Shown one piece after another: positions 4,946 through 38,350 of a stretch of DNA of 43,893 bases; position 1 is the stretch's first letter, and each line of letters starts with the position of its first letter. The DNA comes from Ideonella sp. (GTDB lineage: Bacteria; Pseudomonadota; Gammaproteobacteria; Burkholderiales; Burkholderiaceae_C), in contig JBDHSE010000001.1 of assembly GCA_039807955.1 (NCBI GenBank), forward strand, positions 1 through 43,893, in the 5' to 3' direction. The notes beneath the pieces were generated by a model. That model saw only the letters and a list, made by a program, of their open reading frames with translations, was not told the DNA's origin and did not search any database. Made by a program: the position numbers and the translations under genes.

Positions 4946-5758
4946 ATGACCTGCAACCACATCGTCTTCATCGTCATGGACAGTTGCCGCTACGACAGCT
5001 TCGTCGCCGCGCGCACGCCCAACATCGACCGGCTCGGTCAAGCCGAGCGGCGCTACTCGTACGCGTCGTGGACCGCGCCGTCGCACCATGCCTTCGCGAT
5101 GGGCATGATGCCGCACGCGAGCCCGAAGGAGGTGTTCGCGTCAGAGGTCTACAAGGAGGAGTTCTCGCTGTGGACCGAGCGCACCGGACACGCCGGCATC
5201 CAGTTCAAGGAGTTCCTGCCCGACCTGTCGCTGCCGAAGGTGCTGCGCAACATCGGCTACCGCACGGTGGCCAAGGTGTCGCTGCCGGTGCTCAACAAGA
5301 ACACGCTCATCAGCCGCGACTTCGACGACTACAAGCTGATGAAGAACCACAACGACTTCGCCGGCATGATCGACGAGATGGAGTTTCCCGACGAGCCGCA
5401 CTACTACTTCCTCAACCTCGGCGAGACGCACTATCCGTACATGCTCTCGGGCGCCGACCTGCCGCACATCTCGGGCGTACACGGCGCGCTGAAGTCGATG
5501 GACGACGCGCCGGCGCGCGCCGAGAAGCAGACCTTCGACGCGGCGCAGATGCGGATGCTGCAGCAGCAGCAGGTGAAATGCGTCGAGTACATCGACGGCC
5601 AGATCGGCCGCCTGATGGCGCAGACGCCGCCGAACACGCATTTCATCGTCACCGCCGACCACGGGGAACTGTTCGGCGAGGATGGCTACTTCGGCCACGG
5701 ACCGATCATGCACGAGAAGTGCTTCGAGGTGCCGTTCGTCGAGGGCCGCCTGGCCTGA
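4946..5758 (+). CDS. Small alkaline-phosphatase-superfamily enzyme (NPP/sulfatase-like fold, probable Thr nucleophile)
   Basis: IVFIVMDSCRYD is the metal-binding Asp strand. SWTAPSHHAFAMGMMP is a T-x-P...G..P nucleophile-loop pattern like that of NPPs. TADHGELFGEDGYFGHG is the C-terminal metal ligand motif. Confidence 0.7.
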   Translation: MTCNHIVFIVMDSCRYDSFVAARTPNIDRLGQAERRYSYASWTAPSHHAFAMGMMPHASPKEVFASEVYKEEFSLWTERTGHAGIQFKEFLPDLSLPKVLRNIGYRTVAKVSLPVLNKNTLISRDFDDYKLMKNHNDFAGMIDEMEFPDEPHYYFLNLGETHYPYMLSGADLPHISGVHGALKSMDDAPARAEKQTFDAAQMRMLQQQQVKCVEYIDGQIGRLMAQTPPNTHFIVTADHGELFGEDGYFGHGPIMHEKCFEVPFVEGRLA

Positions 5759-5771
5759 CGACAGCCGCGCG

Positions 5772-6683
5772 ATGGCCGATCCGCTGTTCCTGCTGGCGCC
5801 GCCGAGGTCGTACACCTCGCTCGTCAATGCGATGCTCGGGCAGCATCCGCAGGCGTTCGGGCTGCCCGAGTTGTGCCTGTTCAACGTCGACAAGCTGATC
5901 GACCTGTGGCGCGGCTCGAAAGGCGAGATCTCGGAGAACGGCGCGCTGGTGCGCCACGGCCTGCTGCGCGCCGTCTCCGAGATCTACTGCGGCGAGCAGC
6001 GCGCGACGACCGTCAACATGGCCCTGGTCTGGCTCGCGCAGCGCGAGGAGTGGGACACCGGGCGGATCTTCCGCGAACTGGTCGACAAGATCGACCCGCT
6101 GGTCGCCGTCGAGAAGAGCCCTTCCTACGTGATGTCGGTCAAGCGCATGCAGGCGATCCTGCGCGCGTTTCCGAACGCGCGGTTCGTGCATCTGGTGCGC
6201 CACCCGATCGCGCAGGGCAAGTCGCTGATGGTGATCAACGACGGCGCCTTCTGCCTCAAGGTCGAGGGCTTCGAGCTCGGCGAGGACTATGCGCTGATCG
6301 AGCCGCAGATCGCTTGGCATGACATGAACATGAACATCCTCGACTTCCTCGACGACGTCGCGCCCGAGCGGCAGATCCGCCTGCGCGGCGAGGACGTGAT
6401 GGCCGAGCCGCAGCGCTACCTGGCCCAGATCGCGCGCTGGGCCGGATGGCGCGACGATGACGCGGCGATCGAGGCGATGATGCATCCCGAACGCTCGCCG
6501 TTCGCGTGCTTCGGTCCGATCAACGCGCTGTTCGGCAACGATCCCAACTTCCTCGCCGGGCCGACCTTCCGGCCGCACACGCCGAAGCTGCCGAAACTTT
6601 CGGGACGCCTGCCGTGGCGCACCGACGGCAAGGGCCTGTACCCCGAGGTGATTGCGCTCGCCAACGAGTTCGGCTATGTCTAG
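5772..6683 (+). CDS. PAPS-dependent sulfotransferase family protein
   Basis: 5'-PSB-like loop LLAPPRSYTSL. 3'-PB-like FVHLVRHPIAQGKS. Size about 300 aa. Confidence 0.75.
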   Translation: MADPLFLLAPPRSYTSLVNAMLGQHPQAFGLPELCLFNVDKLIDLWRGSKGEISENGALVRHGLLRAVSEIYCGEQRATTVNMALVWLAQREEWDTGRIFRELVDKIDPLVAVEKSPSYVMSVKRMQAILRAFPNARFVHLVRHPIAQGKSLMVINDGAFCLKVEGFELGEDYALIEPQIAWHDMNMNILDFLDDVAPERQIRLRGEDVMAEPQRYLAQIARWAGWRDDDAAIEAMMHPERSPFACFGPINALFGNDPNFLAGPTFRPHTPKLPKLSGRLPWRTDGKGLYPEVIALANEFGYV

Positions 6684-6713: not shown

Positions 6714-7130
6714 ATGAATGCACCGCCCCCTTCCGGCAAGGCGCCGCGCAAGCGCCTGTCGCCGGTGCCCGAGGATCCGCAGACCGGCCGGCCGGATTCG
6801 GCGCTGCTGTCGCCGCAGCAGCGTGCGCTTCGCACGGCGATGATCGACGCCTACGCGGCGAAGAAGGCGCGCCGCTTCCTCGAGCGTCAGGTCGAGCACA
6901 TCAACATCAAGCGCGAACTGGCCGAGGGGATCAAGTTTCTGTTCGACGAGCACGGCCGCCCGCCGCACAACGCGCCGCTCGAGGACATCGTCGACGAGCG
7001 GCGGCGGATCGAGTATCAGATCAAGTGGTTCGAAGGCATCCTGCAGGAGCTTCACCACCGGCTGGTCCGGGTCAAGGAAGTCGAGGACTACGCATTCGAG
7101 ATGCTGTCGCGCGCATCGCCCGACGAATGA
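6714..7130 (+). CDS. Hypothetical cytoplasmic protein (disordered basic N-terminus, helical C-terminus)
   Basis: Good GC3 codon bias. The stop overlaps the start of the next gene (ATGATGA at 7127-7133). I recognised no family. Confidence 0.55.
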   Translation: MNAPPPSGKAPRKRLSPVPEDPQTGRPDSALLSPQQRALRTAMIDAYAAKKARRFLERQVEHINIKRELAEGIKFLFDEHGRPPHNAPLEDIVDERRRIEYQIKWFEGILQELHHRLVRVKEVEDYAFEMLSRASPDE

Positions 7131-8677
7131 TGAAGGCGACCGCGACGAACGACGAACCTATCCCCCCGGCCCGCGTGCGTGGGCGGCCGGGCGGGGGGCG
7201 CTGGCGCGTCGGCGTCTGCATGTTCGCGCTCGGGCTGGCGGGCTGTGTCCTGGGGCCCGACTACAAGCGTCCCGATGTCCCATTACCCAAGGCCTGGCAG
7301 GCCGAACCGAAGGACGCGGCTGACCTCGCGAATACCGACTGGTGGAAGGCGTTCAACGACGCCGACCTCGACGCGCTCATCGAAACTGCGCTCGACGCGA
7401 ACAAGGACCTGAAGCTCGCAACGCTGCGCGTCGCCGCGTTCGATGCACGACTGCAGGTGAGTCGATCGGCGAACTATCCGCAGATCGGCTACACCGCCTC
7501 GGCGCAGCGCCGGCGCTACAGCCAGGAGCAGCCGACCGGCGCCGGCGGGCTGCAGTCGGGGGTCGGACCGATCGTCAACAACTTCGCCTTGGGCGCCGTC
7601 CTCAACTGGGAGATCGACCTCTGGGGCCGCGTCAAGCGATCGAACGAGGCGGCGCTCGCCGACCTGATGGCCAGCGAGGACGCACGCCGCGGCGTGATGC
7701 TGACGGTGGCGTCGAGCGTCGCGTCGAGCTATGTCGAACTGCTCGCGCTCGATCAGGAACTCGCCATTGCCCGCAAGGCGCTTGCCAACCGCAAGGAAGC
7801 CCTTGCATTGATGCAGACGAAGTACGAGGGCGGGTCGGGGACGCGGCTGGCGATCGAACAGGCGCGTGCCGATGTCGAGAAGACAGCGTCGGAAATACCG
7901 CCGATCGAAACGAGCATCGCGCGCACCGAAGGGGCGCTCAATCTGTTGCTCGGCAGGAACCCCGGGCCGGTGCAGCGCCGCACGCTGGATGCGCTGGCCC
8001 TGCCGCGAATGCCGCAGGGTGTGCCGGCCGACGTGCTGACGCGGCGCCCGGACGTGATGGCCGCCGAACAAGATCTGATCGCGGCGAACGCCCGTATCGG
8101 CGTCGCGAAGACGGCGTACTTCCCGACCCTGTCGCTTGCTGCCGCGATCGGCCTCGCGAGCGACGACCTGCGCTGGCTGTTCGCCGAAACGGCGCGCACG
8201 GGGATCGCCGGTGCCGTCCTCGCCGGGCCGATCTACACCGGCGGCCGCGTCGAGGGCGAAATTCGCGAGGCCGAACTCAACCAGCAACAGATGGCGGTGC
8301 GCTTCGAACAGTCGGTGCAGCTCGCGCTGCAGGAGGTGGAGGACGCTCTCGTGACGCGCGCCAAGTCCGAGGAACGCGAGAACGCGATGGGGCGTCGCGT
8401 CGGCGCCTTGCGCGAGGCGGAGAAACTCGCCGGCGTGCGCTACGAAGGCGGTCAGTCGACATACATGGAGGTGCTCCAGGCGCAGTTCGAGACGATCGGG
8501 GCGCAGAGCGTGCAAACCCAGAGCCGGCGCGACACCTCGCTTGCACTGATCACCGTCTACAAGGCGATGGGTGGGGGCTGGATGGTGGAGTACGACAAGC
8601 GCAAGGCGGCCGCGACTCCTGGCGCCGACGCGCAGGCGCAGGCGCAGACCGCGGACGAAACCGGGACGCAACGATGA
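7127..8677 (+). CDS. Outer-membrane efflux lipoprotein, NodT/TolC family
   Basis: The lipobox LAGC is followed by the NodT signature GPDYKRP. Two OEP repeat halves are present. The C-terminal VYKAMGGGW is typical of the family. A later start near 7220 (MFALGLAGC) is possible. Confidence 0.9.
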   Translation: MMKATATNDEPIPPARVRGRPGGGRWRVGVCMFALGLAGCVLGPDYKRPDVPLPKAWQAEPKDAADLANTDWWKAFNDADLDALIETALDANKDLKLATLRVAAFDARLQVSRSANYPQIGYTASAQRRRYSQEQPTGAGGLQSGVGPIVNNFALGAVLNWEIDLWGRVKRSNEAALADLMASEDARRGVMLTVASSVASSYVELLALDQELAIARKALANRKEALALMQTKYEGGSGTRLAIEQARADVEKTASEIPPIETSIARTEGALNLLLGRNPGPVQRRTLDALALPRMPQGVPADVLTRRPDVMAAEQDLIAANARIGVAKTAYFPTLSLAAAIGLASDDLRWLFAETARTGIAGAVLAGPIYTGGRVEGEIREAELNQQQMAVRFEQSVQLALQEVEDALVTRAKSEERENAMGRRVGALREAEKLAGVRYEGGQSTYMEVLQAQFETIGAQSVQTQSRRDTSLALITVYKAMGGGWMVEYDKRKAAATPGADAQAQAQTADETGTQR

Positions 8678-11121
8678 CCGAGCAGACCAAGAAGATCGTT
8701 TTGCCGCCGCACCTGTCGCGGCGGCTGGAGGCGTTCCGGATCGTCAAGGACGGCGAGCAGAGCTACGTGCTGCGCGACAAGCTGCACGGCGAGAGCTACG
8801 ACTTCGAGCCCTGGCAGTTCTTCATCCTCGAAGTGCTGCCGGGCTGCGAGTCGCTGCAGCGGCTGCAGACCGCGTTCCAGGACCGCTTCGACCGCACGCT
8901 CACCGAGGAGGACGTTGGCGCGCTCTTCGCGTCGATCGCCGATCGCCAGTTATTCGACGAGAGCGCGGCGCAGCATCCGCTGCTCACGCCCTACATGCAC
9001 GTCACCTACCGCGTCGAGGATGGCAAGGCGATACCCAAGCCGTTCGGCGCCGCCGCAGGCGCACCGGCCCTGGCCGCCGCTCCGGCCGCGGCCGCGCAGG
9101 CTGCCGCGGCCGTCCCCGATCCGGAGGCCGATCTGCCGCCGGGCGTGCAGGATGCGCTCGGCCTGGACTGGCGCACGACGACGCGGATGCTTGGCCTGTT
9201 CGATCCGCGGCCGGTGTTTCGCGTCGTCGGCCCTGTGCTCAGGCCGCTGCGCTACATCACCTACGTCGTGCCGCTGCTGCTGCTCGCCGCGATCCTGATC
9301 GTGTTCCAGTATTCGGAGATCTTCTTCGCGGATCTCGCCAATCTGGCGATCGAGAAGACGCTGGTCGAACACCTGCTGTTCGTCTTCGTGACGGTTCACA
9401 TCGTGACGACGCTGACCGCAGGGCTGGTCGCCGACTCGTTCAAGGTGTCGGTCGAGAAGATCGGCATCACGCTGACGATGTGGGTCCTGCCGCGCTGGGT
9501 GCTCAAGATGAACGGTGCCGACCGGCTCAATCGCACCCAGACGATGTGGCTGCACGGTTCGACGCTGATCGCCCGCATGGTGATGTTCAGCGCCGGCGTG
9601 CTGATCTGGTTCAACTCGCGCGACAGCGACAGCGGCTTCGCGACCTTCGGCTTGCTGCTCGGCTTGGCGTGTGCCGCCGGCCTGCTGCTCGAGTCCGGCA
9701 ACCCGCTGATCAAGGCCAACGGCTACTACCTGTTGTCCGCGTACCTGGACGAACCGCATCTGCGCGGCAAGGCCTTTGCCGCGCTGCTGAACAAGTTCAA
9801 AGGCGGCGTCTACCGCGCGGCGGACAGCAATCTGCTCGCGCTCTACGCGTTGGCATCCGCGACCTACGTCGTCTTCATCCTGCTGCTGGTCGGCTGGCTG
9901 ATCACGAAGTATCTGGTCGTCGATCTGGCGCTCGGCGGTTCAGGGGTGGTCATCGTGATCGCCTTCCTCGCGCTGATGGCGTGGCGCAATTACGTCGGTC
10001 TCAAGCAGTTCGGCGAGACCTACGCGAAGAAGGCCCAGTTCGACCGCTGGCGCAGCCGGACCTTGCCGAGCGAAGTTGTCCAGGGCGAGGTCAAGCCGCG
10101 GAAGAGGCGCTACTGGACGACGGCCGCGATCGTCTGCCTGATCCTGGTGCTGTTCATCCCCTACAGCTACGAGGCGGGCGGCCCGTTCGTCATCTACCCG
10201 ACGCAAAAGCAGGTCATCTCGACCGACGAGTCGGGCCTGGTCGAGGCGGTCTACTTCGATGGCGGTGAATCGGTCAAGCAGGGCACGGTGATCGCGCGCC
10301 TGGCGCACGAGGACTACGACGCGAAGATCAAGGTGCTCGACGCGAAGATCGACGAGCAGGCGGCTGTTCTCAGGAATCTCGAGACCCTGCCCCGTCCCGA
10401 AGAGGTCAAGCTCGCGAAGGAGGCGCTCGAGGTGCAGCGCACGCGCGAGGCGTTCAGCCGCGAGAAGGCGCCGCGACTCGAGAAGATGTACAGGGCCGGC
10501 GCCGTTTCGTTCGAGGAGTACGACGCCGCGCGCAAGGAACACATGACCGACGTGCAGCAGGTCGCGCAGAAGGAGGCCGAACTCGCGCTCGTGAAGGCGC
10601 CGGTGACCGCAGCGCAGATCGAGGCCGCCGAGGCCAAGCTCGTCAGCCTGAAGGAGGAGCGTGCGACGTTCGTCGCCAAGCTCGATCGCACCGTGCTGCG
10701 AATGCCTTTCGACGGCAACATCCTGACGCTGCACCTGAAGGACAGGATCAACAGCTTCCTGGAGAAGGGCACGCCGTTCGCGGCGCTCGAGTACACCGGT
10801 GTCGTCACTGCCGAGATCGATGTCCCCGAGCCGGACATCGAGTACGTGAAGCTCGGCGCGACCGTCCGGCTGCGCCCGTCGTCGTTCTACGACGACAAGG
10901 AATTCGAAGGCAAGGTGACGACGATCGACCGCAACGTCACGGTCAAGCCGACCGGCAACGTCATCAAGGTGATCGCGACGATCGAGAACCGGGCGGGGCA
11001 GTTGAAGACCGGCATGACCGGCCGCGCGAAGATCGAGGGCGTCACGATGCCGGTCTGGCAGGCGTTCACCCGAAGCGTCGCCCGCTTTTTCAAGATCACG
11101 GTCTGGTCGTGGATCCCCTGA
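8674..11121 (+). CDS. Fusion protein: N-terminal PqqD/RRE-like domain, polytopic membrane domain (degenerate M50-like?) and HlyD-family periplasmic adaptor
   Basis: ATGA overlap with the OMP gene. Residues 1-100 follow a PqqD-like pattern (YVLRDKLHGESYDFEPWQFFILEVLPGCESLQRL...TLTEEDVGALFASIADRQLFDE), then an Ala/Pro linker. Several hydrophobic helices span about 9253-10170, including ESGNPLIKANGYY. The C-terminal third has HlyD barrel-sandwich, coiled-coil and beta-barrel regions (VKQGTVIARL...coiled coil...MPFDGNILTL...GMTGRAKI). Confidence 0.8.
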   Translation: MTEQTKKIVLPPHLSRRLEAFRIVKDGEQSYVLRDKLHGESYDFEPWQFFILEVLPGCESLQRLQTAFQDRFDRTLTEEDVGALFASIADRQLFDESAAQHPLLTPYMHVTYRVEDGKAIPKPFGAAAGAPALAAAPAAAAQAAAAVPDPEADLPPGVQDALGLDWRTTTRMLGLFDPRPVFRVVGPVLRPLRYITYVVPLLLLAAILIVFQYSEIFFADLANLAIEKTLVEHLLFVFVTVHIVTTLTAGLVADSFKVSVEKIGITLTMWVLPRWVLKMNGADRLNRTQTMWLHGSTLIARMVMFSAGVLIWFNSRDSDSGFATFGLLLGLACAAGLLLESGNPLIKANGYYLLSAYLDEPHLRGKAFAALLNKFKGGVYRAADSNLLALYALASATYVVFILLLVGWLITKYLVVDLALGGSGVVIVIAFLALMAWRNYVGLKQFGETYAKKAQFDRWRSRTLPSEVVQGEVKPRKRRYWTTAAIVCLILVLFIPYSYEAGGPFVIYPTQKQVISTDESGLVEAVYFDGGESVKQGTVIARLAHEDYDAKIKVLDAKIDEQAAVLRNLETLPRPEEVKLAKEALEVQRTREAFSREKAPRLEKMYRAGAVSFEEYDAARKEHMTDVQQVAQKEAELALVKAPVTAAQIEAAEAKLVSLKEERATFVAKLDRTVLRMPFDGNILTLHLKDRINSFLEKGTPFAALEYTGVVTAEIDVPEPDIEYVKLGATVRLRPSSFYDDKEFEGKVTTIDRNVTVKPTGNVIKVIATIENRAGQLKTGMTGRAKIEGVTMPVWQAFTRSVARFFKITVWSWIP

Positions 11122-11177: not shown

Positions 11178-12092
11178 ATGTCCGACCTTGCCGCCGTCGA
11201 CACCACCTACGACCGTTTTGCGCACGATCCTGCGTACGTCGCGGCGAACCGCGCCTTTGTCGAGCGGTTGCCGCTGGCGCGCGTCAAACGCATTCTCGAT
11301 CTCGCCTGCGGCACCGGCGCGGTCGGCCAGTTGATGCTCGCCGCCGCGCCCGAGGCGGGCCTGTACGGCATCGATCTGGACCCGGTGCAGATCGATCTCG
11401 CGATCGAGAACTACACGCAGCTCGGCTTCACGGTGCGGCGCATCGACGGGCCCGCCGGCAGCCTGCCGGTGCAGCGCGGACGGCAGGTGGACCTGGCCGT
11501 GGGTTCGGCGACCGAGCTGCCGTTCGCGCCGGATTCGTTCGACTGCGTGATGATCGCCAACGCGATCCACCTCATCGACGACAAGGTGGCGCTCGCTGCA
11601 TCGATCGCCCGCATCCTCGAGCCGGGGGGCATCTTCGCGTTCAGCTCGGGCTTCTACGCCGGCTGCTGGCCGGCGGTGACGCAGCAGGTCTATACCGAAT
11701 GGCTGAAGGAGGCGACGGCGTGGATCGCGCGCTACAGCGCCGAACGCGTCGCTGCCGGCGAGCCGCCGATTCGGCGCGTGCGAGGCAAGTCGCGGCTGTC
11801 GCCGGTGGCTTACGGCAACCGCTGGTTGACACCCGACGAGTGGCGCCAGATGCTCTTCGAGCAGGGTTTCGAGGTCAGCGACCTGAACCAGCGCGCGGTG
11901 TGGTTCAACCATCGTTCACTCGCATCGGTCGGCGCCTACAGCGGACTGGCCGAGGCGCAGCTGAGCGGCTATCCGGTCGAACTCGCATCCAGGGCACTTG
12001 CCGAGACGGCCGCGCTGGCGCTCGAAAGCGCGGGCGTGACCGAGGTCCAGCACAACTGGATCGAGATTTGTGCGCGTCGGCGTGAGGCCTGA
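11178..12092 (+). CDS. Class I SAM-dependent methyltransferase
   Basis: Motif I ILDLACGTGAVG, post-I GIDLD, motif II/III FDCVMIANAIHLI...LEPGGIF. Confidence 0.85.
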   Translation: MSDLAAVDTTYDRFAHDPAYVAANRAFVERLPLARVKRILDLACGTGAVGQLMLAAAPEAGLYGIDLDPVQIDLAIENYTQLGFTVRRIDGPAGSLPVQRGRQVDLAVGSATELPFAPDSFDCVMIANAIHLIDDKVALAASIARILEPGGIFAFSSGFYAGCWPAVTQQVYTEWLKEATAWIARYSAERVAAGEPPIRRVRGKSRLSPVAYGNRWLTPDEWRQMLFEQGFEVSDLNQRAVWFNHRSLASVGAYSGLAEAQLSGYPVELASRALAETAALALESAGVTEVQHNWIEICARRREA

Positions 12093-12140
12093 CCGACGAT
12101 ATCTTCAACCATTCCCTTTTCGAGATTCCGGCAGCAACTC

Positions 12141-12449
12141 ATGACGAACGAAACCCCCGCCCCGAAATTCACGCGCGACGAGATCGAGCGCGACATCATC
12201 GCGATCCTGACCGACATGACCGCCGACTGGGATCTGTCCTTCACCGGCGGCATCAAGCCCGACACCCGGCTGATGGCCGATCTGGCGTTCGAGTCGATCG
12301 ACGTCGTGCAGCTCGTCGTCGCGATCGAGGCCCACGTCAAGCGTCGCCATCTGCATTTCGAGAAGCTGCTGATGGCCGATGGCCGCTACGTGCAGGAACT
12401 GCAGGTCAAGCAGATCGCCGACTTCCTCGCGCAGCAGTTCGCCGAGTGA
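12141..12449 (+). CDS. Discrete acyl/peptidyl carrier protein
   Basis: 102 aa. The phosphopantetheine-site-like motif is DLAFESIDVVQLV, with the Ser codon at 12294-12296. This is an atypical E-S-I rather than D-S-L. Confidence 0.75.
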   Translation: MTNETPAPKFTRDEIERDIIAILTDMTADWDLSFTGGIKPDTRLMADLAFESIDVVQLVVAIEAHVKRRHLHFEKLLMADGRYVQELQVKQIADFLAQQFAE

Positions 12450-12489
12450 TGTCGCGAACCCGACCGTCGCGTCTCGACGTCTGACGCCG

Positions 12490-14094
12490 ATGCCCCCAAC
12501 CGGCGCGGGCGGGCAGGTCGCGATCGTCACCGGGGCGAGCAGCGGCATCGGACGGGCCACCTGCATTGCGCTGGCACGGGCCGGTGCGCAGATCGTCGCC
12601 GTCGGGCGCGACGAGGCCCGGCTCGCGGCGACCGCCGATCTGGTGCGCGAGGTGGGTCGCACGCCGGCCGTCGTGCTTGCGCTCGACGTGCGCTCCGAAG
12701 CCGACATGCAACGCATGTCGGCATGCACGCTGGAACGCTTCGGCCGCATCGACGTGCTGGTGCACGCCGCCGGCATCCTGCGCGCGCCCGGGGCGACGCT
12801 GCGCATGCTCGCGCAGCTTGCGACGCCGGAGTGGGACGAGGTGGTCGACATCAACCTGCGCGGCACCTACCTTGCCAATCGCGCGGTGCTGCCGGCGATG
12901 CTCGCTGCGCGCCGCGGCGACATCGTCAACCTCTCGTCGCGATCGGGCCGGGTCGGTATCGCGTTCGACGCGCCGTACTGTGCGTCGAAGTTCGGCGTCG
13001 TCGGGCTGAGCGAGGCGATCGCCGACGAGGTGCGCCCGTTCGGCGTGCGCGTGCAGGTGCTGGCGCCGGGCAAGTTCGACACCGAAGTGCTGCAACAGAC
13101 CGGGCCGCTGCCGCAGCCGGCGGACATCCCGCCACCGGAGCGCGTCGCCGATGCGATCGTCTGGATGCTCTCGATGCCGCCCGACACGCGCTTGCTCAAC
13201 CCTGCCATCGAGCCGACCCGACAGCCCGGGGGCGCGGGATGGGCTCAAGGCCGCGGCGAAGCCGGGCGGCGAACAGGACCGCGTTCTTCTTACCAGGAGT
13301 CAACAATGGAAGCTTCAGCATCGGGCGCCGCCAGGGATCTGCGCGGCAAGGTCGTCGTCGTCACCGGCGGCACCGGCGGCATCGGGCTGGCGACGGCGCA
13401 CGCCGTCGCCGCGCTCGGCGCGGCGGTCGTCGTGGCCGATCTCGACGCCGGGCGCGTCGCCGCCGTCGCCGCCGAAGTAGCGCAGGCGGGTGCGGCCGGC
13501 GGCCTCGGGGTCGCGATCGACGTGCGTCGCGAGGAGGATCACGAGCGGCTGGTCAAGGCGACGCTCGAGCGCTTCGGCCGCATCGATGCGCTGATCGCCT
13601 GCGCAGGCATCCTTCGCAAGCGCGGCACGCCGCCCAAGGTGCTGGTCGACGTCAGCACCGACGAGTGGGACGACGTCATCGCGATCAACCTGAAGGGGGT
13701 GTTCCTTTCGAACCGCGCCGTGCTGCCGACGATGATCGCGCAGCGCAGCGGAACGATCATCAACCTGTCGTCGGTGCAGGGGCTGCAGGGTCGCGCCTAC
13801 GACGGGCCGTACTGCGCGTCCAAGTTCGGCGTCATCGGCCTGTCGCAGGCTGCGGCCGACGAGGTGCGAAGCTACGGCGTGAAGGTGCAGGCGCTTATGC
13901 CGGCAGCCGTCGCGACGCCGATGTGGGAGCAGAACCTGCCGGCGCCGATGCCCGGCGACGCGATACCGCCGGAGCGCGTCGCCGACCTGATCGTCTTCAT
14001 GCTGCTCCAGCCCGAGGACACGATGATCGTCGCGCCGGTGATCGCGCCGCTTGGCGCGCGCAAGCGCAAGGCGGCGGCGAAGCCCGCGCAATAA
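12490..14094 (+). CDS. Tandem double short-chain dehydrogenase/reductase (two complete SDR units in one frame)
   Basis: Unit 1 has TGASSGIG, NLSS and YCASK. Unit 2 has TGGTGGIG, NLSS and YCASK. No stop codon lies between the units. An internal AGGAG-N6-ATG sits at 13295-13308. Confidence 0.8.
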   Translation: MPPTGAGGQVAIVTGASSGIGRATCIALARAGAQIVAVGRDEARLAATADLVREVGRTPAVVLALDVRSEADMQRMSACTLERFGRIDVLVHAAGILRAPGATLRMLAQLATPEWDEVVDINLRGTYLANRAVLPAMLAARRGDIVNLSSRSGRVGIAFDAPYCASKFGVVGLSEAIADEVRPFGVRVQVLAPGKFDTEVLQQTGPLPQPADIPPPERVADAIVWMLSMPPDTRLLNPAIEPTRQPGGAGWAQGRGEAGRRTGPRSSYQESTMEASASGAARDLRGKVVVVTGGTGGIGLATAHAVAALGAAVVVADLDAGRVAAVAAEVAQAGAAGGLGVAIDVRREEDHERLVKATLERFGRIDALIACAGILRKRGTPPKVLVDVSTDEWDDVIAINLKGVFLSNRAVLPTMIAQRSGTIINLSSVQGLQGRAYDGPYCASKFGVIGLSQAAADEVRSYGVKVQALMPAAVATPMWEQNLPAPMPGDAIPPERVADLIVFMLLQPEDTMIVAPVIAPLGARKRKAAAKPAQ

Positions 14095-20442: not shown

Positions 20443-20931
20443 GGAAGGTGGTTCGCCGCGCGGCGGGCGACGAGAGTGATGCGCCTATCGATCGCGTCGT
20501 CCGGACGCCGCTTGTCCGGCTTGTTGGTCTTGCCCCGAACCGTTCCCATCGTGCGCAGCGCTCATCGCATCGCCCGGGCCGCCCGGTTGACGTCCGGCGC
20601 GACGCGTTTGGAAGTGTGCAGGCACTAGCGCTCGAAGCCTTCTTTGTAATGGAGACCCAGTGTCTACCCCCCACGAATGAGGGGGGGTGTAACGCGCACA
20701 AAGTCCATCATGAAGGAACAGAATCGGTCCTTGCTCGGAATCAAGAGTGTGCCATTCAATCGAGCCTTTCGTTTCGGACGGCGGTCGTGTGATGTTCACG
20801 ATCGAGGCGAATGACGATGGCCGGGCAAGGATCCATCGATTCAGAATGTCAGACCGATAAGCCCGGGCCATTTCCCGACGATGACGTGCTTGTCGGCGAC
20901 GAGCCGAAAGCAGCCTACTCGCCTCAATCTC
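20443..20931. promoter_or_regulatory. Divergent intergenic region between hydrolase paralogue B (-) and the synthase operon (+)
   Basis: This is the only clearly AT-richer stretch in the window (about 20630-20880). It contains a C6/G7 hairpin at 20666-20688. I could not pin down individual promoter elements. Confidence 0.4.
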
Positions 20932-23900
20932 ATGACCGACTTCATATCGTTCGTGTTCACGCCTGCGGGCCTGGGTGATCCGACACTTGCCATCGCGGCC
21001 AGCCGCGCCGGTGCGGTCGGTATCTACAACGCCGAACTCGACGCGGATACAGGGCAGATCGTTGCCGCGCTCGAGCGGCTCGCGGTGCATGCGCACGGCG
21101 GTTTCGGTGTCAAGCTCGATGCGATCGGTGAACCTGTCGAGGCCAAACTTCGGCTGCTGGCATCGCGCGGGCTGGGATGGGTGGTCGTCGCCGTTGACCT
21201 TGTAGCGCAGCATCAGGGCTTGCTCGAGGGCCTGCGTCAACTAGGTGTGCGCGTGCTTGCGGAGGTCCGAACCGCGGCGCCGCTGCCTGCTTCGATCACC
21301 GCGCGAATCGACGGACTGCTCGTCAAGGGCAACGAAGCAGGCGGCTTCGTCGGCGAGGATGCGAGCTTCATTCTTTTGCAGAAGTGGCTGCAACGCGGCG
21401 ATCTGCCTCTGTATCTGCGCGGCGGGCTCACGCCCCACGTGGCAGCGGCGTGCAGCGCGGTCGGCATCGCCGGCGGGGTGCTCGAATCGCAGCTGCTGCT
21501 GCTGGACGAAGTGCGTCTGCCCGATGCGCTGCGCGCGCTGATCGGCAACCTCGCCGGCAGCGAGACGGTCGCAGTCGGCGACGGCGAACGCGGGGAGTAC
21601 TTCCGCCTTCTGGTGCGGCCGGCGCTCACGGCGGCGCGCCAGTTCACGACCGAAGGCGACGGGCTGAGCATGGACGACCTGCGCCCGCTGGTGCTCGGAC
21701 GATCGAACTGGCACGAGCCGGCCACCGGCCTGCTGCCGATCGGCCAGGAGGTTGCGTTTGCCGCGCCGTGGCGCAGGAAGTACGGTCATCTGGGCGCCGT
21801 GCTGGCGGCGATCGACGAGGCGGTCCGCAGCCAGCCGAGGATCGCGGCGCAGCACCCGCCGATCGCGGAAGGGGCGCCGCTGGCGCGCTCGCTCGGCATA
21901 CGCTTTCCGATCGTCCAGGGGCCGATGACGCGCGTCTCGGACACTGCCGAGTTCGCGCTCGCGATCGCCGAGGGCGGTGCCTTGCCGATGGTCGCCTTCG
22001 CGATGCTCAAGGGGCAGGCGCTGGAGTCGCTGCTCGAACGCACCAAGGAACTGCTGGGCGAACGGCCCTGGGGCATCGGCCTGCTCGGCTTTGCGCCGCA
22101 GGAGTTGCTCGACGAGCAGCTTGCGATCGCCAAGCGATTCATGCCCGACTACGCGATCATCGCCGGCGGCCGGCCCGATCAGGCGGTTCACCTCGAACAG
22201 GCCGGTGTGCCCACCTTCCTGCATGTTCCGGCGGCGAGCCTGATCGCGACGTTCCTGCACGAAGGCGCGCGCCGCTTCATCTTCGAAGGCCGCGAGTGCG
22301 GCGGGCATATCGGGCCGCTCAGTAGCTTCGTGCTCTGGAGCTCGATGGTCGATCGCCTGCTCGCCGAACTCGGGCCGGGAAAGGTAAGGGCCGACGAAGT
22401 CGAACTGCTGTTTGCCGGCGGCATTCACGACGCACTCTCGTCGGCGATGCTGCAGGTGCTCGTCGCGCCGCTCGTCGCCGCCGGGGCCAAGGTCGGCGTC
22501 CTGATGGGCAGCGCCTACCTCTTCACGCAGGAGATCGTCGCCAGCGGCTCCATCGTGCCGCAGTTCCAGCAGGAGGTGCTCGACTGCGAACACACCGTCA
22601 ACCTCGAGTCGGGGCCGGGTCACGCGAGCCGATGCGCCTACACGCCGTTCGCGCACGACTTCTTCCGCCAGCGCGCCGAGCTCAAGCGCGACGGCGTCGC
22701 GCCCGACGAAAGCCGGCGCCTGCTCGACGATCTGATTCTCGGGCGTCTGCGCACCGCGTCCAAGGGCCGCAAGCGCGACGGCATGGGCGGCAAGCTCGAA
22801 TCGCTCGCGCCCGAACAGCAACGCGCCGAGGGCATGTACATGCTCGGCCAGGTGGCGACCCTTCGCGACGCCGTGACCGACATCGAGACCTTGCACCAGG
22901 AGGTCAGCGCGGGCGCCGCGGCGCTGCTGTCGCGCCATCTCGAGATGCCCGACGCCGTCACGCGGCGTGCAACCGGGTCGCCCGCCGATATCGCCGTCGT
23001 CGGCATCGCCGCGGTGCTGCCCAAGGCCAACAGCACGAGCGAGTACTGGGAGAACATCCTCGCCAAGGTCGATGCGATCACGGAGATCCCGTCGCACCGC
23101 TGGGACTGGCGGCTCTACTTCGACGCCGACCGCACGGTGAAGGACAAGGTCTACTCGAAGTGGGGCGGTTTTCTCGACGACATGGCGTTCGACCCGACGC
23201 GCTTCGGCATGCCGCCGAAGTCGATCGAATCGGTCGATCCGATGCAGCTGATGGCGCTCGAAGTCGCGCGCCGCACGCTGGCCGACGCCGGCTATGCCGA
23301 GCGCGCCTTCGATCGTGAACGGGCGTCGGTCATCCTTGGCGCGAGCGGCGGCACGGGCGACTTCGGAATGCAGTACGGGCTGCGCTCGGAACTGCCGCGC
23401 TTCAGCGGCAACCTGCCCGACGAGGTCGCCGCGCGCCTGCCGCAGTGGACCGAGGACTCGTTCGCCGGGATCCTGCCCAACGTCGCCGCCGGCCGCATCG
23501 CGAACCGGCTCAACTTCGGCGGCATGAACCTGACGACCGACGCCGCCTGCGCGTCGTCGCTCGCGGCCGTCTACCAGGGCGTCGGCGAGTTGATGGCCGG
23601 TCGCAGCGACTTCGTGATCGCCGGCGGCATCGATACCGTCCAGGGCCCGTTCGGCTACCTGTGCTTCAGCAAGACGCAGGCCCTGTCGCCGCGAGGACGT
23701 TGCTCGACCTTCGACGCCGGGGGCGACGGCATCGTCATCAGCGAAGGCATCGCGATGGTCGCCCTCAAGCGCCTCGTCGACGCCGAGCGCGACGGCGACC
23801 GCATTTATGCCGTCATCAAGGGCGTCGGCGCGAGCAGCGACGGCAGCGCCAAGGGCATGACCGCGCCGCTGCCGGCCGGCCAGTTGCGGGCGATGCGCCG

Positions 23901-26900
23901 CGCGTACGAGATGGCGGGCTTCGGCCCGTCGACGGTGGGTCTGTTCGAGGCCCATGGCACCGGCACCGTCGCCGGCGACACCGCCGAACTCGAGAGCACG
24001 ACCCGCCTGATCCAGGAGGAGGGCGCGGCGCCGCGCTCGGCGGTGATCGGATCGGTCAAGACGAATATCGGCCACACCAAGGCGACGGCAGGCGTGGCCG
24101 GTCTCGTCAAGGCGCTGCTCGCGGTGCATCACCGCGTGCTGCCGCCGCATTGCAACGTCAGCACCCCGAACCCGGTGCTCGCGGACCCGACAGCGCCGCT
24201 CTACCTGATCGATGAACCCACCCCCTGGCTCGACGCGGGCGACGCGCCGCGGCGCGCGGCGTGCAGCGCGTTCGGCTTCGGCGGCACCAACTTCCACGTC
24301 GTGATGGAGGAGTACGGCGCCGAGTACCGCGACTGGCTGCGCCCGCCGGCGAGCGAGCACCGAAGCGCCGAACTGTTCGTCTGGAGCGCCGACGATCGCG
24401 CGGCGTTGAAGGCGCGGATCACGGCGCTCGAGACCCGGCTGGCGGGGCTGGATGCGCTCGCGCCGCGCGACCTCGCGGCAAGCCTCGCGGCGCGCTGGCG
24501 CATGCGCGGCGAGGTGCTGGCGATCGTCGCCGGCAGCGTTGCCGATCTGCGCACCAAGCTCGCGGCGGCGATCCGCTATGCGAACGGCGAAGTGAAGGCC
24601 TTGCCGCCGGGGGTGTTCTTCGGCAGCCCGAGCGCGACGCGCGGCAAGCTTGCCGTGCTGTTTCCCGGTCAGGGCTCGCAGTACCCCGGCATGGCGCGCG
24701 AAGCGGCGCTCCATTTCGACGTGGTCGGAGAAGCGTTGGGCGCGGCCGACGCGGCGCTGCGCGACGCCTTCGAATCCCGCTTCGGCGCCGCGGCGCGGCT
24801 GTCGCAGTTCATCCTGCCGCGCGGTGCCTACGGTGACGACGGCAAGGCGCTCGCACGTGAGAAGCTGACCCGCACCGACGTTGCGCAACCGGCGCTCGGC
24901 GCGGTGGAAGTCGGCCTGCTGCGCCTGATGCAGTCGCTCGGCCTCGAGCCCGACATGTACGGTGGCCACAGCTACGGCGAGTTCGTCGCGCTGCACGCTG
25001 CGGGCGCGCTCGGCTTCGACGCGCTGATGCAGCTGTCCGCGGCACGCGGGCGCTTCATCGTCGACGCCGCGTCCGCGGCGGGCGCCGAACTGGGCACGAT
25101 GGCGGCTGTCAGCGCGACACGCGACGTGGTCGAGGAAGCGATCGCGGACATCGACGACGTCCTCATCGCCAACCACAACGCGCCGCTGCAGAGCATCATC
25201 TCGGGCACCCATGAGGCCGTGAAGGCCGCCGCGGCGAAGTTACGTCAAGGCGGGGTCGAAGTGACCGACATCGCGGTCGCCGCCGCCTTCCATTCAAGCC
25301 TCGTCAAGCCGGCGCAGCAGGCCTTGTCCGAACTGATCGAGACGCTGCCGTGGTCGCCGCCGCGGGTTGCGGTCTACTCGAACAGTTCGGGCCGTCCGCA
25401 CGCGGCCGATGTGGCGCGTGTCAAGCGCCAGATGGCCGAGCATCTTGTCAGCCCGGTCGAGTTCGTCGCCGAGGTCGAGGCGATGCACAAGGATGGCGCA
25501 CGCGTCTTCGTCGAAGTCGGACCGAAGAACGTGCTGACGCGGCTCACCTCCCGCATCCTCGACGGGCAGCCGCATGTCGCCGTCGCGATCGACGACGGCA
25601 GCGGGTTGAGCGGCCTGCTCGGCGGCATCGGCCGCCTGCTGTGCGCCGGCATTGCGCTCGACCTCGCACCGTTGTTCGTGCGCCGCGACTGCCGCCTCGG
25701 CGACCCCGACGATCCCGCTGCGCTGCTGCGCGTCGAAGCAACGCCCAAGCACGCCTGGATGCTCAACGGCAGCGGCCCGCGCAGGGCCGCCGAAGCGGTG
25801 CGCCAGGTCGGCGTGACGCTCGAGCAGGCTCGGGCCGGGCAAGTTGCTGCAAGGGTGCCCGCCGCGCCGGTCGCGCCGGCCACTGCGCGCACCTCGACGG
25901 CGGAGGCAGCGCCGGTCATCTTGCCGGCCGCACCGGCACGCACAGTTACCCCACAACCCTGGAGAAGGAGTCGATCGATGGATGAACGACGATCCGTTTC
26001 GGGCATCGCGGATCCGTCCGTCATGTCCGAGTATTTCGCGACGATGCGTCAATTCCTGGAGACCCAGGAGCGGGTGATGTCGACCTTCCTCGGCGACGGC
26101 GCGCCGTCCCGGCCGATGCTGCGTGCGCGGCCGCTTCCGGCGCTGCGGCCGATCGCCGAGTTGCCCGCGGCGCCCGCGGTCGCGGTTCCGGCTCCGCCGC
26201 CGGTTGCCGCACCGTCTGTAGTCCCGGTCACGCCCGCGCCGGCAGCGAAAGCGGTCGAGCCGGCGCCGGCCGCGCCGCCCGCACCGGTGCAGGCGATCGC
26301 AGCCGAGGTTGCCGCGCCCAAGGCGGGAGCCGAGGCGTTGTCGCGCGACAAGCTGCTCGACATGCTGCTCGGCATCGTCGAGGAGAAGACCGGCTATCCG
26401 CGCGACATGGTCGGGCTCGATCAGAACCTCGAGGCCGACCTCGGCATCGATTCGATCAAGCGCGTCGAAGTCGTCGGTGCCATGCTGCAACTGCTTCCGG
26501 CCGCGCATCGCGAAGCGCTCACCGACAGCCGCAGCAAGCTCAACACGCAGCCGACGCTCAACGGCATGCTCGACTTGATTGACAAGGCCACGGTCGGAGG
26601 CAGCACCGTCCCTTTTGATTTGGCCGGGGTGGGAGAACAGACTGGCGCCGCCAGCCACCCGCCCCGGCTGGTCATGCGTCCGCGGCAAGAGCCGTTGACG
26701 CCCGCGATGGCCCGGCGCCTGACGCCGGGGCGATTCGTCCTCACGCGCGACAGCGTCGGCGTCGCCGCTGCGCTTGCCGAGTTGCTGGCGGCGCGCGGCG
26801 CCGAGGTCGTGATCGTCGAGCCCGATATCCTGTCTTCGGAGCCGGCGCTGCTCGCTTTTTGCGAGTCGCTCGGCGCTGCTCCGATCGCAGGGGTCGTGCA

Positions 26901-29154: not shown

Positions 29155-32100
29155 ACGAATCGACGCTCGACCAGCCGGCGCCGATCGCGATCATCGGCAT
29201 GGCCTGCATGTTCGCGCAGGCGCCCGATCTGCAGACGTTCTGGAACAACATCCTCGCCGGCGTCGACGCGATCGGCGAGCCGGTCGAGAACTGGGGTGCG
29301 CAGCGTTACCTCGACGCGGGCCGCATCAAGACCCAGTTCGGCGGCTATCTGAAGGACCTCTATCGCTTCGACCCGCGCGCGTTCGGGATCATGCCGAATT
29401 CGCTCGACGGCGGCGAGCCGGACCAGTTCATTGCCTTGCGCGTGGCGAGCGACGCGCTCGCCGATGCCGGCTACCTGGGCGCCGGATTCGACCATTCGGA
29501 TACCGGCATCATCCTCGGCCACAGCACCTACCTGCATCGCGGGCAGGGCACGATCATCCAGAACGACATCGGTGTCGATCAGACGATGGACGTCGTCTGC
29601 GCGATGCTGCCGCAGCTCGACGCCGACAAGCGGGCGCGGATCCGGGCCATGCTCGAGGCGACGATCCCGCCGATGACGCCCGACATCGCGCCCGGCCTCG
29701 TGCCCAACGTGATGACCGGGCGCATCGCGAACCGGCTCGATCTGCACGGGCCGAACTATCTGGTCGACGCCGCCTGCTCGTCGTCGCTGCTCGCCGTCAG
29801 CGCGGCGATCGACGAGTTGCGCGCCGGTCGCAGCCGCATGATGCTCGCCGGCGGCGTGAACGCGTCACTGCCAGCCGACGTGACGACGATCTTCACCCAG
29901 CTCGGTGCGTTGAGCGCGCGCGGCAAGGTCAGGCCATTCGAGGCCGGCAGCGACGGCACGCTGCTCGGCGAGGGCCTGGGCGTGGTCGTTCTCAAGCGGC
30001 TGGCCGACGCGCTGGCCGACGGCGACCGCGTCTACGCCGTGCTGCGCGGCGTCGGCCAGTCGAGCGACGGGCGCGGCACCGGCCTGCTCGCGCCGAGCCA
30101 GGAAGGCGAGACGCTCGCCATCCGGCGCGCCTATCAGGCTTCGGGCATCGATCCGGCGAGCGTCAGCCTCGTCGAGGCGCACGGCACCGGCATCCCGCTC
30201 GGCGACCGCACCGAGATCGCGTCGCTGAAGGCGGTGTTCGGCGAGCGCAGGACGCCGATCGGCGTCAAGGCGCTCGGCTCGGTGAAGTCGATGATCAGCC
30301 ACTGCATCCCGGCCGCCGGCGTCGCGAGCCTGATCAAGATGGCGCTGTCGCTGCATCACAGGGTCCTGCCGCCGACGCTGTGCGACGCGGTCAACCCCGA
30401 ACTCGGCATCGACGCGACGCCGTTCTACGTCAACACGCAGGCCGCGCCGTGGATCACGCACCTGGACAGCCCGCGCCGCGCGGCGGTCAACGCGTTCGGC
30501 TTCGGCGGCACGAATGCGCACGCCATCATCGAGCAGGCGCCGGCCGAGGCGCGCACCCCGCCGCGGCTCGGCGCCTGGCCGGCCGAGCTGTGCGTGCTGT
30601 CGGCCGACAGCGACGCGGCGCTCGTCGCCCGCCTTGAGGCGCTGGGTACGGCGTTGGCACGCCGTCCCGACTGGCGGCTGGCGGAAGTGGCGGCCGCGCT
30701 GGCGCGCGACGATCGCGCGCAGGCGCACCGCATCGCGATCGTCGCGACCGACACCACGGCGTTGGCCAAGCGCATCGAGCAGGTGCTGCAACGGATGCGC
30801 GAAGGCCGTGCCAGCGATCGCTGGACGGCGCGCGGCGGCGTTGCCTACGGCAGTCAGCGCGTCGACGGCAAGCTCGCCTTTCTCTTCCCCGGCGAGGGCT
30901 CGCAGTATCCGGCGATGTTCGCGGGGCTCGCGATGTGCTTCGACGTGGTCCAGCAATGGCTCGACTTCTGGCACGGCCTCTACGAACTGCCGCCCGGCCA
31001 GACGCGCACCGACATCGTCTTTCCGACATCGGAGATCGGCGCCGAGCGCCGGCGCGAACTCGAGCAGCGCATGCAGGACATGGACGTCGGCTCCGAGTCG
31101 GTGTTCATCGGCGACATGGCGATGCACGAACTGCTCGTCTCGCTCGGCGTCGAGCCCGACGCGATGCTCGGCCACAGTTCGGGCGAGTCGGCCGCGCTCG
31201 CCGCGTGCGGTGCGAATCCGGCGCTCACGCCGGCCGAGCGCGCGTACTGCATCAGCCGCCACTTCGCCGTCTATGAGGAACTGCTCGCCGCCGGCAAGAT
31301 CCCGACCGGCGCGTTGCTCGCCGTCGGCGCGCTGCCGCCGGCGACCGTCGAATCGCTCGTCGCGCAGGCCGGCGACGTGGTTGTCGCGATGGACAACTGC
31401 AGCAACCAGATGGTGCTCTACGGCAGCCACGACGGCATTGCCCGCGTCCACGCGCTGCTGACGCAGGAGGGCGGCATCTGCCTGCCGCTGCCGTTCGACC
31501 GCGGCTATCACACGTCGGTGTTCAGCGACGTGAGCGCCGCCTTCCTGCAGTACTACAAGGACGTGAAGGTCGGACGACCGGTGATTCCGCTGTATTCCTG
31601 CGCGTCGGCCGACCTGTTCCCGACGAATCCGTCAGCGGTGCGCAAGCTCGCGGCGGCGCAGTGGTCGAAGAAGGTGCGCTTTCGCGAGACGGTGCTCAAG
31701 ATGCACGACGACGGGGTGCGCCTGTTCGTCGAAGTCGGCCCGTCGGCCAAGCTCACCGCATTCGTGAACGACATCCTGATCGATCGCGATTTCATCTCGG
31801 TGTCGACCAACGTGCGGCGCAAGAACGACGTCGAGCAGTTTCTCGCCGTCCTCGGACAGCTCTACGTCGCCGGCCGCGGCCCGGCCCTGGAGCGGCTGTT
31901 CGAGTCGAGAGCGATCGCCGCGATCGACCTCGAAGGCCCGGCGCCGGCACCGCGCGGCGTGCTGCTCGACAACACGATGCCGATGCTGCGGCTCGGCGCC
32001 GCGCAGCGTGAGACCCTGCGCCAGTTGGCCGCACCGCCACCGGCGGCGCCCGCCCCGAGCAAGGATGGGGCGCAGCCGTACGTGCAGCCGATGGCCGCCG

Positions 32101-33965: not shown

Positions 33966-34050
33966 GCGAATCGAACCATCGCAACGTCGAACACACGGCC
34001 GCGCCGCAATGCGCAGCGGCGCGCCGGCTCCGCATCGAAGGATTCAGGTC

Positions 34051-35658: not shown

Positions 35659-35672
35659 CGGAACCGCCAACG

Positions 35673-38212: not shown

Positions 38213-38350
38213 GCGTTGGGCAGACCGGCATGGCTCGCGGCACTCGCGGCGGCGCGATCGGCTGCCGTGAACGGGGATCGGCTGCGCGAAAACCGGCTCG
38301 ATCGCACGGCACGACCCGAGCCCGACGATCCATCGGCTCCGCGCCATCCG

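Follow-up and report, generated by a model that had tools for sequence, protein, structure and literature searches.

An 815-residue fusion of an RRE-like domain, a zinc-less site-2-protease-like membrane domain and a HlyD-type adaptor, coupled to a NodT-family channel gene in Ideonella sp.

The stretch of DNA analysed here, a 43,893-nucleotide window from Ideonella sp. (GenBank assembly GCA_039807955.1, contig JBDHSE010000001.1, positions 1 to 43,893), contains a gene for an 815-residue protein in which a domain of the PqqD/RiPP recognition element (RRE) type, a polytopic membrane domain that resembles site-2 proteases (S2Ps) but lacks their zinc ligands and an adaptor of the HlyD type are joined in a single chain. 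Each of these modules is known, and it is their combination that is new: the RRE, the zinc-less S2P and the adaptor share one chain, the channel gene is translationally coupled, a local pump gene is absent and the setting is a cluster of polyketide synthase (PKS) and sulfotransferase genes. No literature description of an S2P–HlyD or an RRE–HlyD fusion was found, and a keyword check of two adaptor reviews gave no mention of a fusion between an adaptor and a protease domain. In the accepted view, TolC-dependent export requires an energised transporter of the ATP-binding cassette (ABC), resistance–nodulation–division (RND) or major facilitator superfamily (MFS) class together with an adaptor and a channel. 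We propose, giving the proposal an even chance, that the fusion protein is the inner-membrane/periplasmic half, and the NodT-family channel the other half, of a dedicated two-gene exporter in which a dead protease replaces the pump. Its cargo is most likely an amphiphilic, probably sulfated product of the surrounding cluster, the PKS genes of which resemble polyunsaturated fatty acid (PUFA) synthases.

Domain structure of the fusion protein

The open reading frame (ORF) of the target gene has no internal stop, and its GC content differs between the second (0.41) and the third codon position (0.92), a pattern typical for true genes in a window of 67–71% GC, which marks it as a real gene. A database search returned 120 full-length homologues with identities of 49–96%, which share the start MTEQTKKIVLP with the target; those with a named source come from Burkholderiales (Rubrivivax, Ideonella and Comamonadaceae), and the annotations do not go beyond 'HlyD/efflux RND adaptor' or, at JGI, 'putative peptide zinc metalloprotease protein'. 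With a profile of residues 1–500 the family reaches 2,577 cluster representatives (50% identity clusters) at E ≤ 1e-3 and 670 at E ≤ 1e-10, and since most of the top 150 representatives are 750–850 residues long, the fusion to a HlyD-type adaptor is the norm of the family. A sulfotransferase paper that names a 'putative peptide zinc metalloprotease' was set aside, as it concerns unrelated ASST genes.

A hydropathy scan places seven transmembrane (TM) helices at residues ~192–210, 231–252, 295–313, 321–339, 388–406, 418–440 and 484–502, in agreement with the polytopic block at 9253–10170 that an earlier note, made from the raw sequence, had marked; the three domain calls of that note, namely a PqqD/RRE-like N-terminus, a dead membrane block of the M50 type and a HlyD adaptor, are upheld by the evidence given below. 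The loops rich in lysine and arginine fall on alternate sides, including 11 Lys/Arg in the loop 444–483, and because of this charge distribution the sequence fits an N-in, C-out orientation, in which the N-terminal 190 residues would be cytoplasmic and residues 505–815 periplasmic.

The membrane domain was modelled with AlphaFold over residues 165–504 on 35 diverse sequences, with a mean predicted local distance difference test (pLDDT) score of 83.5, a predicted template-modelling score (pTM) of 0.76 and a β-hairpin immediately after TM2. The top and only high-probability PDB match of this model in Foldseek is the S2P SpoIVFB (8vjl_A; probability 0.99, 239 aligned columns). At the level of sequence, the query matches the NCBIfam model of the daptide biosynthesis intramembrane metalloprotease (NF041824) with an E-value of 2e-6 over model positions 101–375 of 379, and the model of the YydH/LiaK epipeptide protease weakly. 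When the family members were scanned singly, 32 of 35 matched NF041824 (best E 1.7e-16) and 11 of 35 matched YydH/LiaK, so that the S2P homology belongs to the family and is not a chance match. Profile searches with residues 1–500 and 165–504 returned no S2P or PqqD entry among PDB sequences, and the S2P assignment is made because of the NCBIfam family matches, the single Foldseek match and the order of the structural elements. The membrane domain is thus probably related to RRE-dependent S2P leader peptidases such as daptide MpaP and YydH/LiaK.

The catalytic motifs of this scaffold have been lost. The absence of HExxH from the protein, which had been noticed before, holds for 345 relatives (120 close homologues, 149 distant cluster representatives and 76 metagenomic relatives). 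In TM2 the family consensus is T-V-N-L and that of the query clade T-V-H-[IV]-V, with position 242 occupied by H in 69, N in 37 and R in 14 sequences of the close clade and by N in 90 of 109 representatives. The second S2P motif persists as N343-P344-L, in which P344 is near-invariant (one exception in 300 aligned sequences). The position of the zinc-ligand Asp, residue 349, is Asn in the query, and every one of the 120 close homologues has N, S or H there. Among 109 representatives 47 retain the Asp, as do 49 of 71 metagenomic relatives. Over the same 300 aligned sequences, the near-invariant residues of the membrane domain are only P273, W312, P344, G350/Y351 and the P-Y-x-Y-E-x-G-G at the boundary between TM7 and the periplasm, and no conserved set of His, Glu, Asp or Cys residues able to form another metal site was found. 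Because HExxH is missing, Asp349 is replaced and there is no alternative set of metal ligands, we conclude that the membrane domain is a pseudoprotease that retains the S2P scaffold. A preprint on TMcin deals with a different (DUF3267) protease.

Residues 1–112 were modelled on a 37-sequence alignment (pLDDT 88.9) as a β-sheet followed by three main helices, as in the winged-helix-type RRE fold, with strands at residues 4–8, 18–25, 28–35 and 41–44, main helices at 46–57, 61–72 and 78–90 and then two short C-terminal helices. The best PDB matches of this model in Foldseek are the lasso-peptide RRE TbiB1 bound to leader peptides (5v1u and 5v1v; probability 1.00, TM-score 0.65–0.67 on the target, root-mean-square deviation 3.6–3.8 Å), and further matches are another lasso B1 protein and the RRE-containing sactisynthase CteB (6jx3 and 5why). 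Pfam PqqD is matched directly by 2 of the 37 aligned relatives (best E 6.8e-9) and not by the query itself, and one distant relative has a precomputed weak PqqD match. Conservation is strong around D43-F-x-x-W-Q-F-F-x-L-E and F68-x-D-R-F-x-R, and a profile of the query RRE domain detected the domain in 48 of the 76 metagenomic relatives. Homologues of ~940 residues (P0055, P0073, P0079, P0088, P0099, P0104 and P0118; locus L004), one of which is from Rubrivivax gelatinosus, carry two tandem RRE copies before the membrane domain.

In the target, Pfam recognises only the C-terminal part, with HlyD_3 at 39.9 bits (cutoff 22.2) and HlyD_D23 at 38.4 bits (cutoff 30) over residues 514–781. Sub-threshold NCBIfam matches of this adaptor are to RND_mfp, EmrA, YbhG-type and DevB adaptors, the DevB score being 40 bits (cutoff 129). 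TIGR01843 gives 41.7 bits (cutoff 208.65). The upstream gene, which encodes the channel, matches Pfam OEP and reaches 341 bits with TIGR01845 (the NodT subfamily; cutoff 210). Its TGA overlaps the ATG of the target in caacgATGAcc, with the ATGA at 8674–8677, as had been read from the raw sequence, and the same 4-nt overlap is present in loci L001–L004. The features of the locus are collected in Table 1.

Table 1. Features of the target gene and of the surrounding cluster (window coordinates)
Feature	Position	Strand	Description and evidence
Target gene	8674..11121	+	815-residue RRE + dead S2P-like membrane domain + HlyD-type adaptor; ORF, GC content at codon position 3 (GC3), 120 homologues
PqqD/RRE-like domain, residues 1–112	8674..9009	+	Predicted cytoplasmic; AlphaFold model, Foldseek, Pfam PqqD in relatives
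Linker, residues 113–164	9010..9165	+	Ala/Pro-rich centre, poorly conserved, length varies among homologues
Six-helix S2P-like pseudoprotease domain, residues 165–444	9166..10005	+	β-hairpin after TM2; AlphaFold, Foldseek SpoIVFB, NF041824 and NF058609, hydropathy
TVHIVTT in TM2, residues 240–246	9391..9411	+	Helix where S2P proteases carry HExxH; alignments
ESGNPLIKANGYY, residues 340–352	9691..9729	+	Remnant of the S2P NxxPxxxxDG motif; alignments
Basic cytoplasmic loop (11 Lys/Arg) and TM7, residues 445–504	10006..10185	+	Ends in family-wide P-Y-x-Y-E-x-G-G, predicted at the periplasmic face
Periplasmic HlyD-type adaptor (predicted location), residues 505–815	10186..11118	+	Lipoyl, helical hairpin and β-barrel modules; Pfam HlyD_3 and HlyD_D23, sub-threshold NCBIfam
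NodT-family outer-membrane factor, putative lipoprotein	7157..8677	+	Pfam OEP, TIGR01845, ATGA overlap; lipobox-like GLAGC read by eye
138-residue protein, predicted cytoplasmic	6714..7130	+	Between sulfotransferase and channel genes; no family match; conserved
Sulfotransferase (Sulfotransfer_3)	5682..6683	+	First gene of the four-gene core; true start probably slightly downstream; Pfam, conserved position
DUF11-repeat (Pfam 'CLIPPER') putative lipoprotein	3587–4813	+	Upstream of the core, Burkholderiales only; lipobox-like LLASC read by eye
Sulfatase-like STM4013/SEN3800-family hydrolase, short	4946–5758	+	Upstream of the core, Burkholderiales only
Methyltransferase, acyl carrier protein, double short-chain dehydrogenase	11178..14094	+	Downstream of the target
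Two PUFA-synthase-like PKS genes	20881..33965	+	Pfam: ER-KS-AT-KR-DH in the first; KS-AT and PPTase in the second

Gene neighbourhood and the absence of a local pump gene

The window was compared by tblastn with 25 loci from species-representative genomes and four from protein look-ups. In every close locus with sufficient upstream flank, the genes for Sulfotransfer_3, the ~138-residue protein, OEP and the target stand in this order, the exception being the Myxococcota locus L026, in which OEP was undetected. This four-gene block is found in Burkholderiales, Xanthomonadales (Thermomonas, Lysobacter, Rhodanobacteraceae and Cognatiluteimonas), Steroidobacteraceae, Salinisphaerales and a Myxococcota metagenome-assembled genome, and among the carriers in culture are Ideonella sp. 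BN130291, Rubrivivax albus ICH-3 and Cognatiluteimonas sedimenti. The gaps between core genes measure 26–56 nt.

The 138-residue protein, for which no Pfam, NCBIfam or PDB relative was found, is conserved end to end, with an N-terminal motif, RKRLSPxPxxPxTGRPD, and, towards the C-terminus, an acidic EDY site whose tyrosine is Ala or Gln in four loci. In locus L004, with the double-RRE variant of the target, it shows a single copy of the N-terminal motif. With its EDY in an acidic context the protein was considered as a tyrosine-sulfated cargo of the RaxX kind, which the replacements of the tyrosine and the end-to-end conservation make unlikely.

In most Burkholderiales the block is followed by genes for a methyltransferase, an acyl carrier protein (ACP) and a double short-chain dehydrogenase and by two large PKS genes, a set that is missing in L003/L013, L007 and L019. 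The core lies ~10 kb upstream of the unsplit PKS gene (window 20881–29154) in Burkholderiales, whereas in Xanthomonadales (L015, L017, L021, L022, L024 and L028) the large PKS gene is divided into two parts that flank the inserted four-gene core. The DUF11-repeat protein upstream of the core ranges in length from 408 to ~1,200 residues across genomes. In L001/L002 (1–2453), genes for the supply of 3′-phosphoadenosine 5′-phosphosulfate (PAPS), namely a CysN/C-like protein, a CysD-like protein of the PAPS_reduct family and a CysQ-like inositol phosphatase, stand directly upstream of the cluster, which fits a heavy demand for sulfation.

The same partners recur at a much greater distance. Eighty metagenomic loci with 22–37% identity to the distant member P0204 were collected, and the 55 with at least 3 kb of flank were counted: the neighbours are a sulfotransferase in 23, an ACP in 17, a type I phosphodiesterase-family protein in 14, a Pfa-like PKS in 12 and hydrolases in 11–18, while the 138-residue protein was detected in three only. 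An OEP gene is present in 13 of the 55, always at most 3.5 kb away, and also adjoins P0204. This recurrence indicates that the superfamily is tied to one kind of lipid/polyketide gene cluster, and the co-occurrence of the fusion with sulfotransferase and fatty acid synthase/PKS genes, proposed for checking in the earlier note, is real and strong. No literature description of the PUFA-synthase-like PKS/sulfotransferase cluster or of its product was found. Two distant representatives adjoin genes for non-ribosomal peptide synthetases (NRPSs) and a BD-FAE-type esterase.

Some further genes of the window were noted alongside these comparisons. The region 33685–39148 beside the PKS genes encodes a type I phosphodiesterase-family protein, three α/β-hydrolases and a soluble 490-residue protein, and the same accessory set recurs beside very distant relatives of the fusion. 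The distant fusion members in L030, L035 and L036 have NRPS genes and a gene for a BD-FAE/Abhydrolase_3 esterase as neighbours; homologues of this esterase are encoded at 38216–39148 of the window and, in the Myxococcota locus L026, immediately upstream of the core. At its right end the window encodes a class II-like ribonucleotide reductase large subunit (39352–42399) and an NnrS membrane protein (42842–43849), both apparently unrelated to the cluster.

Pump genes were sought in the window and in the 29 close loci, over 10 kb on each side, as ORFs with a Walker A motif and an LSGGQ-type signature and as ORFs with at least six hydrophobic helices. Within this range neither an ABC ATPase nor, apart from the target, a conserved polytopic protein was found, which confirms that the locus has no ABC, RND or MFS partner, as the raw sequence had suggested; checked gene by gene, the target is the sole polytopic membrane protein of the window before the NnrS gene at 42.8 kb. 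One candidate for a hidden pump, 'unk709', was rejected, as it resolves into an α/β-hydrolase (35706–36728) and the soluble 490-residue protein (36740–38212), in which no membrane helices are predicted. In this region (34614–38212) the two mechanical ORFs, of 704 and 709 residues, each have a long spurious 5′ extension of low GC3, and of the two real genes that of the hydrolase bears a small conserved C-terminal extension. PADLOC gave no defence-system match.

In tripartite systems the adaptor genes almost always adjoin the transporter genes, with the channel often encoded at an unlinked site. Canonical adaptors are anchored by a single helix or by a lipid, and their genes stand beside that of an ABC, MFS or RND pump (PMC4446572; PMC8277102). 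The target locus reverses this pattern, since its channel gene is translationally coupled and a transporter gene is absent locally, and operon logic therefore favours the membrane domain as the translocator over a pump recruited from elsewhere in the genome. The foremost alternative is nevertheless such a recruitment: the protein would be an ordinary periplasmic adaptor working with a housekeeping pump of the ABC, MFS or RND class whose gene lies elsewhere, and its RRE and dead S2P domains would be a peripheral substrate receptor or a regulatory add-on. The EmrA, YbhG-type and DevB adaptors that its C-terminal part resembles are all pump-dependent, TM7 stands at the position of their single anchor helix and no energy-coupling motif was found in the fusion; in addition, an ABC-type ORF lies within 10 kb in 5 of the 55 distant loci, directly upstream on the same strand in L053 and L055. 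However, the other 50 distant loci and the 29 close loci have no pump gene, despite the tight conservation of the neighbourhood, the coupled channel and the normal placement of adaptor genes in operons with their pumps, and the six-helix domain is conserved family-wide beyond the expectation for a decorative add-on. We therefore regard a borrowed pump as an unlikely explanation, although one that deserves to be kept in mind.

Proposed mechanism and cargo

For the dedicated two-gene exporter, the following course may be envisaged. The fusion protein would descend from an RRE-dependent intramembrane S2P leader peptidase of the daptide MpaP type, in which the zinc site would have disappeared and to which a HlyD-type adaptor would have been added at the C-terminus. 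The cytoplasmic RRE would dock a protein or peptide partner, such as the N-terminal motif of the 138-residue protein, a carrier protein or the sulfotransferase, and this docking would tie the last biosynthetic step to export; the best candidate for the partner in the close clade is, at a guess, the 138-residue protein, through its RKRLSPxPxxPxTGRPD motif. S2Ps engage their substrates within the membrane via a scaffold of a hairpin and a Pro kink. In the fusion this substrate-binding scaffold would be kept in the β-hairpin after TM2 and the near-invariant Pro kink, and the dead S2P domain may serve as an inner-membrane entry gate that replaces an ABC, RND or MFS pump. TM7 and the adaptor would oligomerise, dock the NodT channel and form a conduit across the envelope.

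A more specific version, in which each adaptor subunit would contribute one dead S2P domain to a ring and this ring would form the inner-membrane translocon of a pump-less two-gene exporter, is put forward tentatively and appears to us rather doubtful. According to this version, a sulfated polyketide lipid or lipopeptide would pass from an RRE-docked biosynthetic complex through the fused adaptor to the NodT channel, and the energy might come from the proton-motive force, from coupled biosynthesis or from partitioning into the outer membrane, with no dedicated ATPase.

Several observations weigh against the exporter proposal. The S2P homology is remote: the NF041824 score of the query is 26.7 bits, far under the curated cutoff of 300, none of the 35 membrane-domain fragments matched Pfam Peptidase_M50 (PF02163), and the SpoIVFB match is otherwise weak, with an E-value of 0.054 and a TM-score of 0.30–0.34. 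An hhalign comparison of the family profile with the single SpoIVFB sequence (verified against 8vjl_A), which as a single-sequence template is weak, gave a probability of 0.1. No energy source was found for the fusion, no S2P fold is known to translocate anything, and the pump search, which covered 10 kb on each side, leaves room for a pump elsewhere in the genome. An RRE implies a peptide ligand, yet the core contains no precursor-like short ORF. As for the cargo, the sulfotransferase may install a leaving group, as in the olefin formation of CurM/OLS, and the cargo then need not be sulfated.

The RRE also leads to a second alternative, the export or processing of a peptide or lipopeptide, in which the RRE and the S2P scaffold would bind a leader-like peptide (the 138-residue protein or an unrecognised precursor) that carries the PKS product. 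The ancestry of both N-terminal modules lies in leader-peptidase machinery that binds peptides, NRPS genes stand beside two distant relatives, and the 138-residue protein, with its conserved extended N-terminal motif and acidic EDY site, is encoded in every close locus that holds the upstream region. That protein is, however, conserved throughout, like a folded subunit and not like a leader with a variable core, and its EDY tyrosine is not maintained in four loci; the short gaps in the core leave no space for a hidden precursor, and with a dead protease there would be no removal of a leader. Moreover, the RRE is kept in most of the distant relatives examined, whereas the 138-residue protein is found in only a few of the distant loci. 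A peptide cargo is on these grounds improbable. It is very improbable that the protein is not an exporter but an envelope-spanning sensor or tether, for example for the control of cluster expression or for anchoring to the outer membrane: S2P proteases are classically signalling enzymes, pseudoenzymes often become regulators and the fusion lacks an evident energy source, but the coupling to a TolC-type channel and the complete HlyD-type adaptor point to a conduit, and the conserved genes of the core include neither a transcription factor nor a sigma/anti-sigma gene.

Comparison with known systems

Focusing on the order of the N-terminal modules, the closest known arrangement is that of the daptide leader peptidase MpaP, in which an RRE is N-terminal to an intramembrane S2P, RRE–S2P fusions having been described in 2023 (PMC10028931). 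MpaP/DapP (NF041824) and the target have in common an N-terminal RRE followed by an S2P-type polytopic domain. MpaP, however, has HExxH, cleaves a leader, has no HlyD domain and is encoded in Gram-positive RiPP clusters with short precursor genes, whereas the target has neither HExxH nor the Asp ligand, carries a C-terminal adaptor and stands in a Gram-negative PKS/sulfotransferase cluster with a channel gene; its neighbours are PKS, sulfotransferase and channel genes and not daptide genes. With the proteases SpoIVFB, RseP and mjS2P the target shares the order of elements, namely the motif helix, the β-hairpin, two helices and the N-P kink motif, with a spacing between the motifs of 107 residues compared with 94 in SpoIVFB; it differs from them in the absence of zinc ligands, in the low TM-score and in the lack of a match to Pfam Peptidase_M50.

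On the side of the adaptors, the target resembles HlyD, EmrA, YbhG and DevB in having a helix anchor followed by lipoyl, hairpin and β-barrel modules, and in the gene of a putative channel partner of the TolC/NodT family. It differs from HlyD-type adaptors in 500 extra N-terminal residues (~480 before TM7, the equivalent of the anchor), in six more helices and in the absence of a nearby pump gene. In cyanobacteria, the DevBCA–HgdD (TolC) system, with the permease DevC and the ATPase DevA, exports the heterocyst glycolipid made by a PKS/FAS-like synthase that is encoded nearby. The likeness to this system lies in a dedicated adaptor and a TolC-like channel for what would be a PKS/FAS-like lipid, together with the weak DevB match of the target, whereas no counterpart of either DevC or DevA is present at the target locus. 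Type 1 secretion, including the RaxABC exporter of sulfated peptides, differs in that the target locus has no ABC gene and the candidate Tyr sulfation site is not conserved.

In conclusion, this study reports a protein family in which an RRE, a zinc-less S2P scaffold and a HlyD-type adaptor are combined, and brings to notice a conserved, phylogenetically broad cluster of PUFA-synthase-like PKS and sulfotransferase genes. The RRE domain, a hallmark of ribosomal-peptide pathways, is thereby extended into the context of PKS lipids. If the fusion works without a pump, it would add a fourth kind to the inner-membrane components of TolC-dependent systems, and a new class of such components would serve a widespread lipid gene cluster. 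In PqiABC and LetAB, a polytopic inner-membrane protein is combined with a periplasm-spanning tunnel, with no dedicated ATPase. In the rhomboid pseudoproteases Derlin and iRhom, a dead intramembrane protease is reused to engage and move membrane clients (PMC8641752; PMC6451368). The analogy of the target with all of these is conceptual only, as their folds are unrelated to it and there is no sequence relationship; if the proposal is true, the fusion described here would nevertheless be a bacterial intramembrane pseudoprotease reused for transport or membrane extraction, comparable in this respect to the Derlins.

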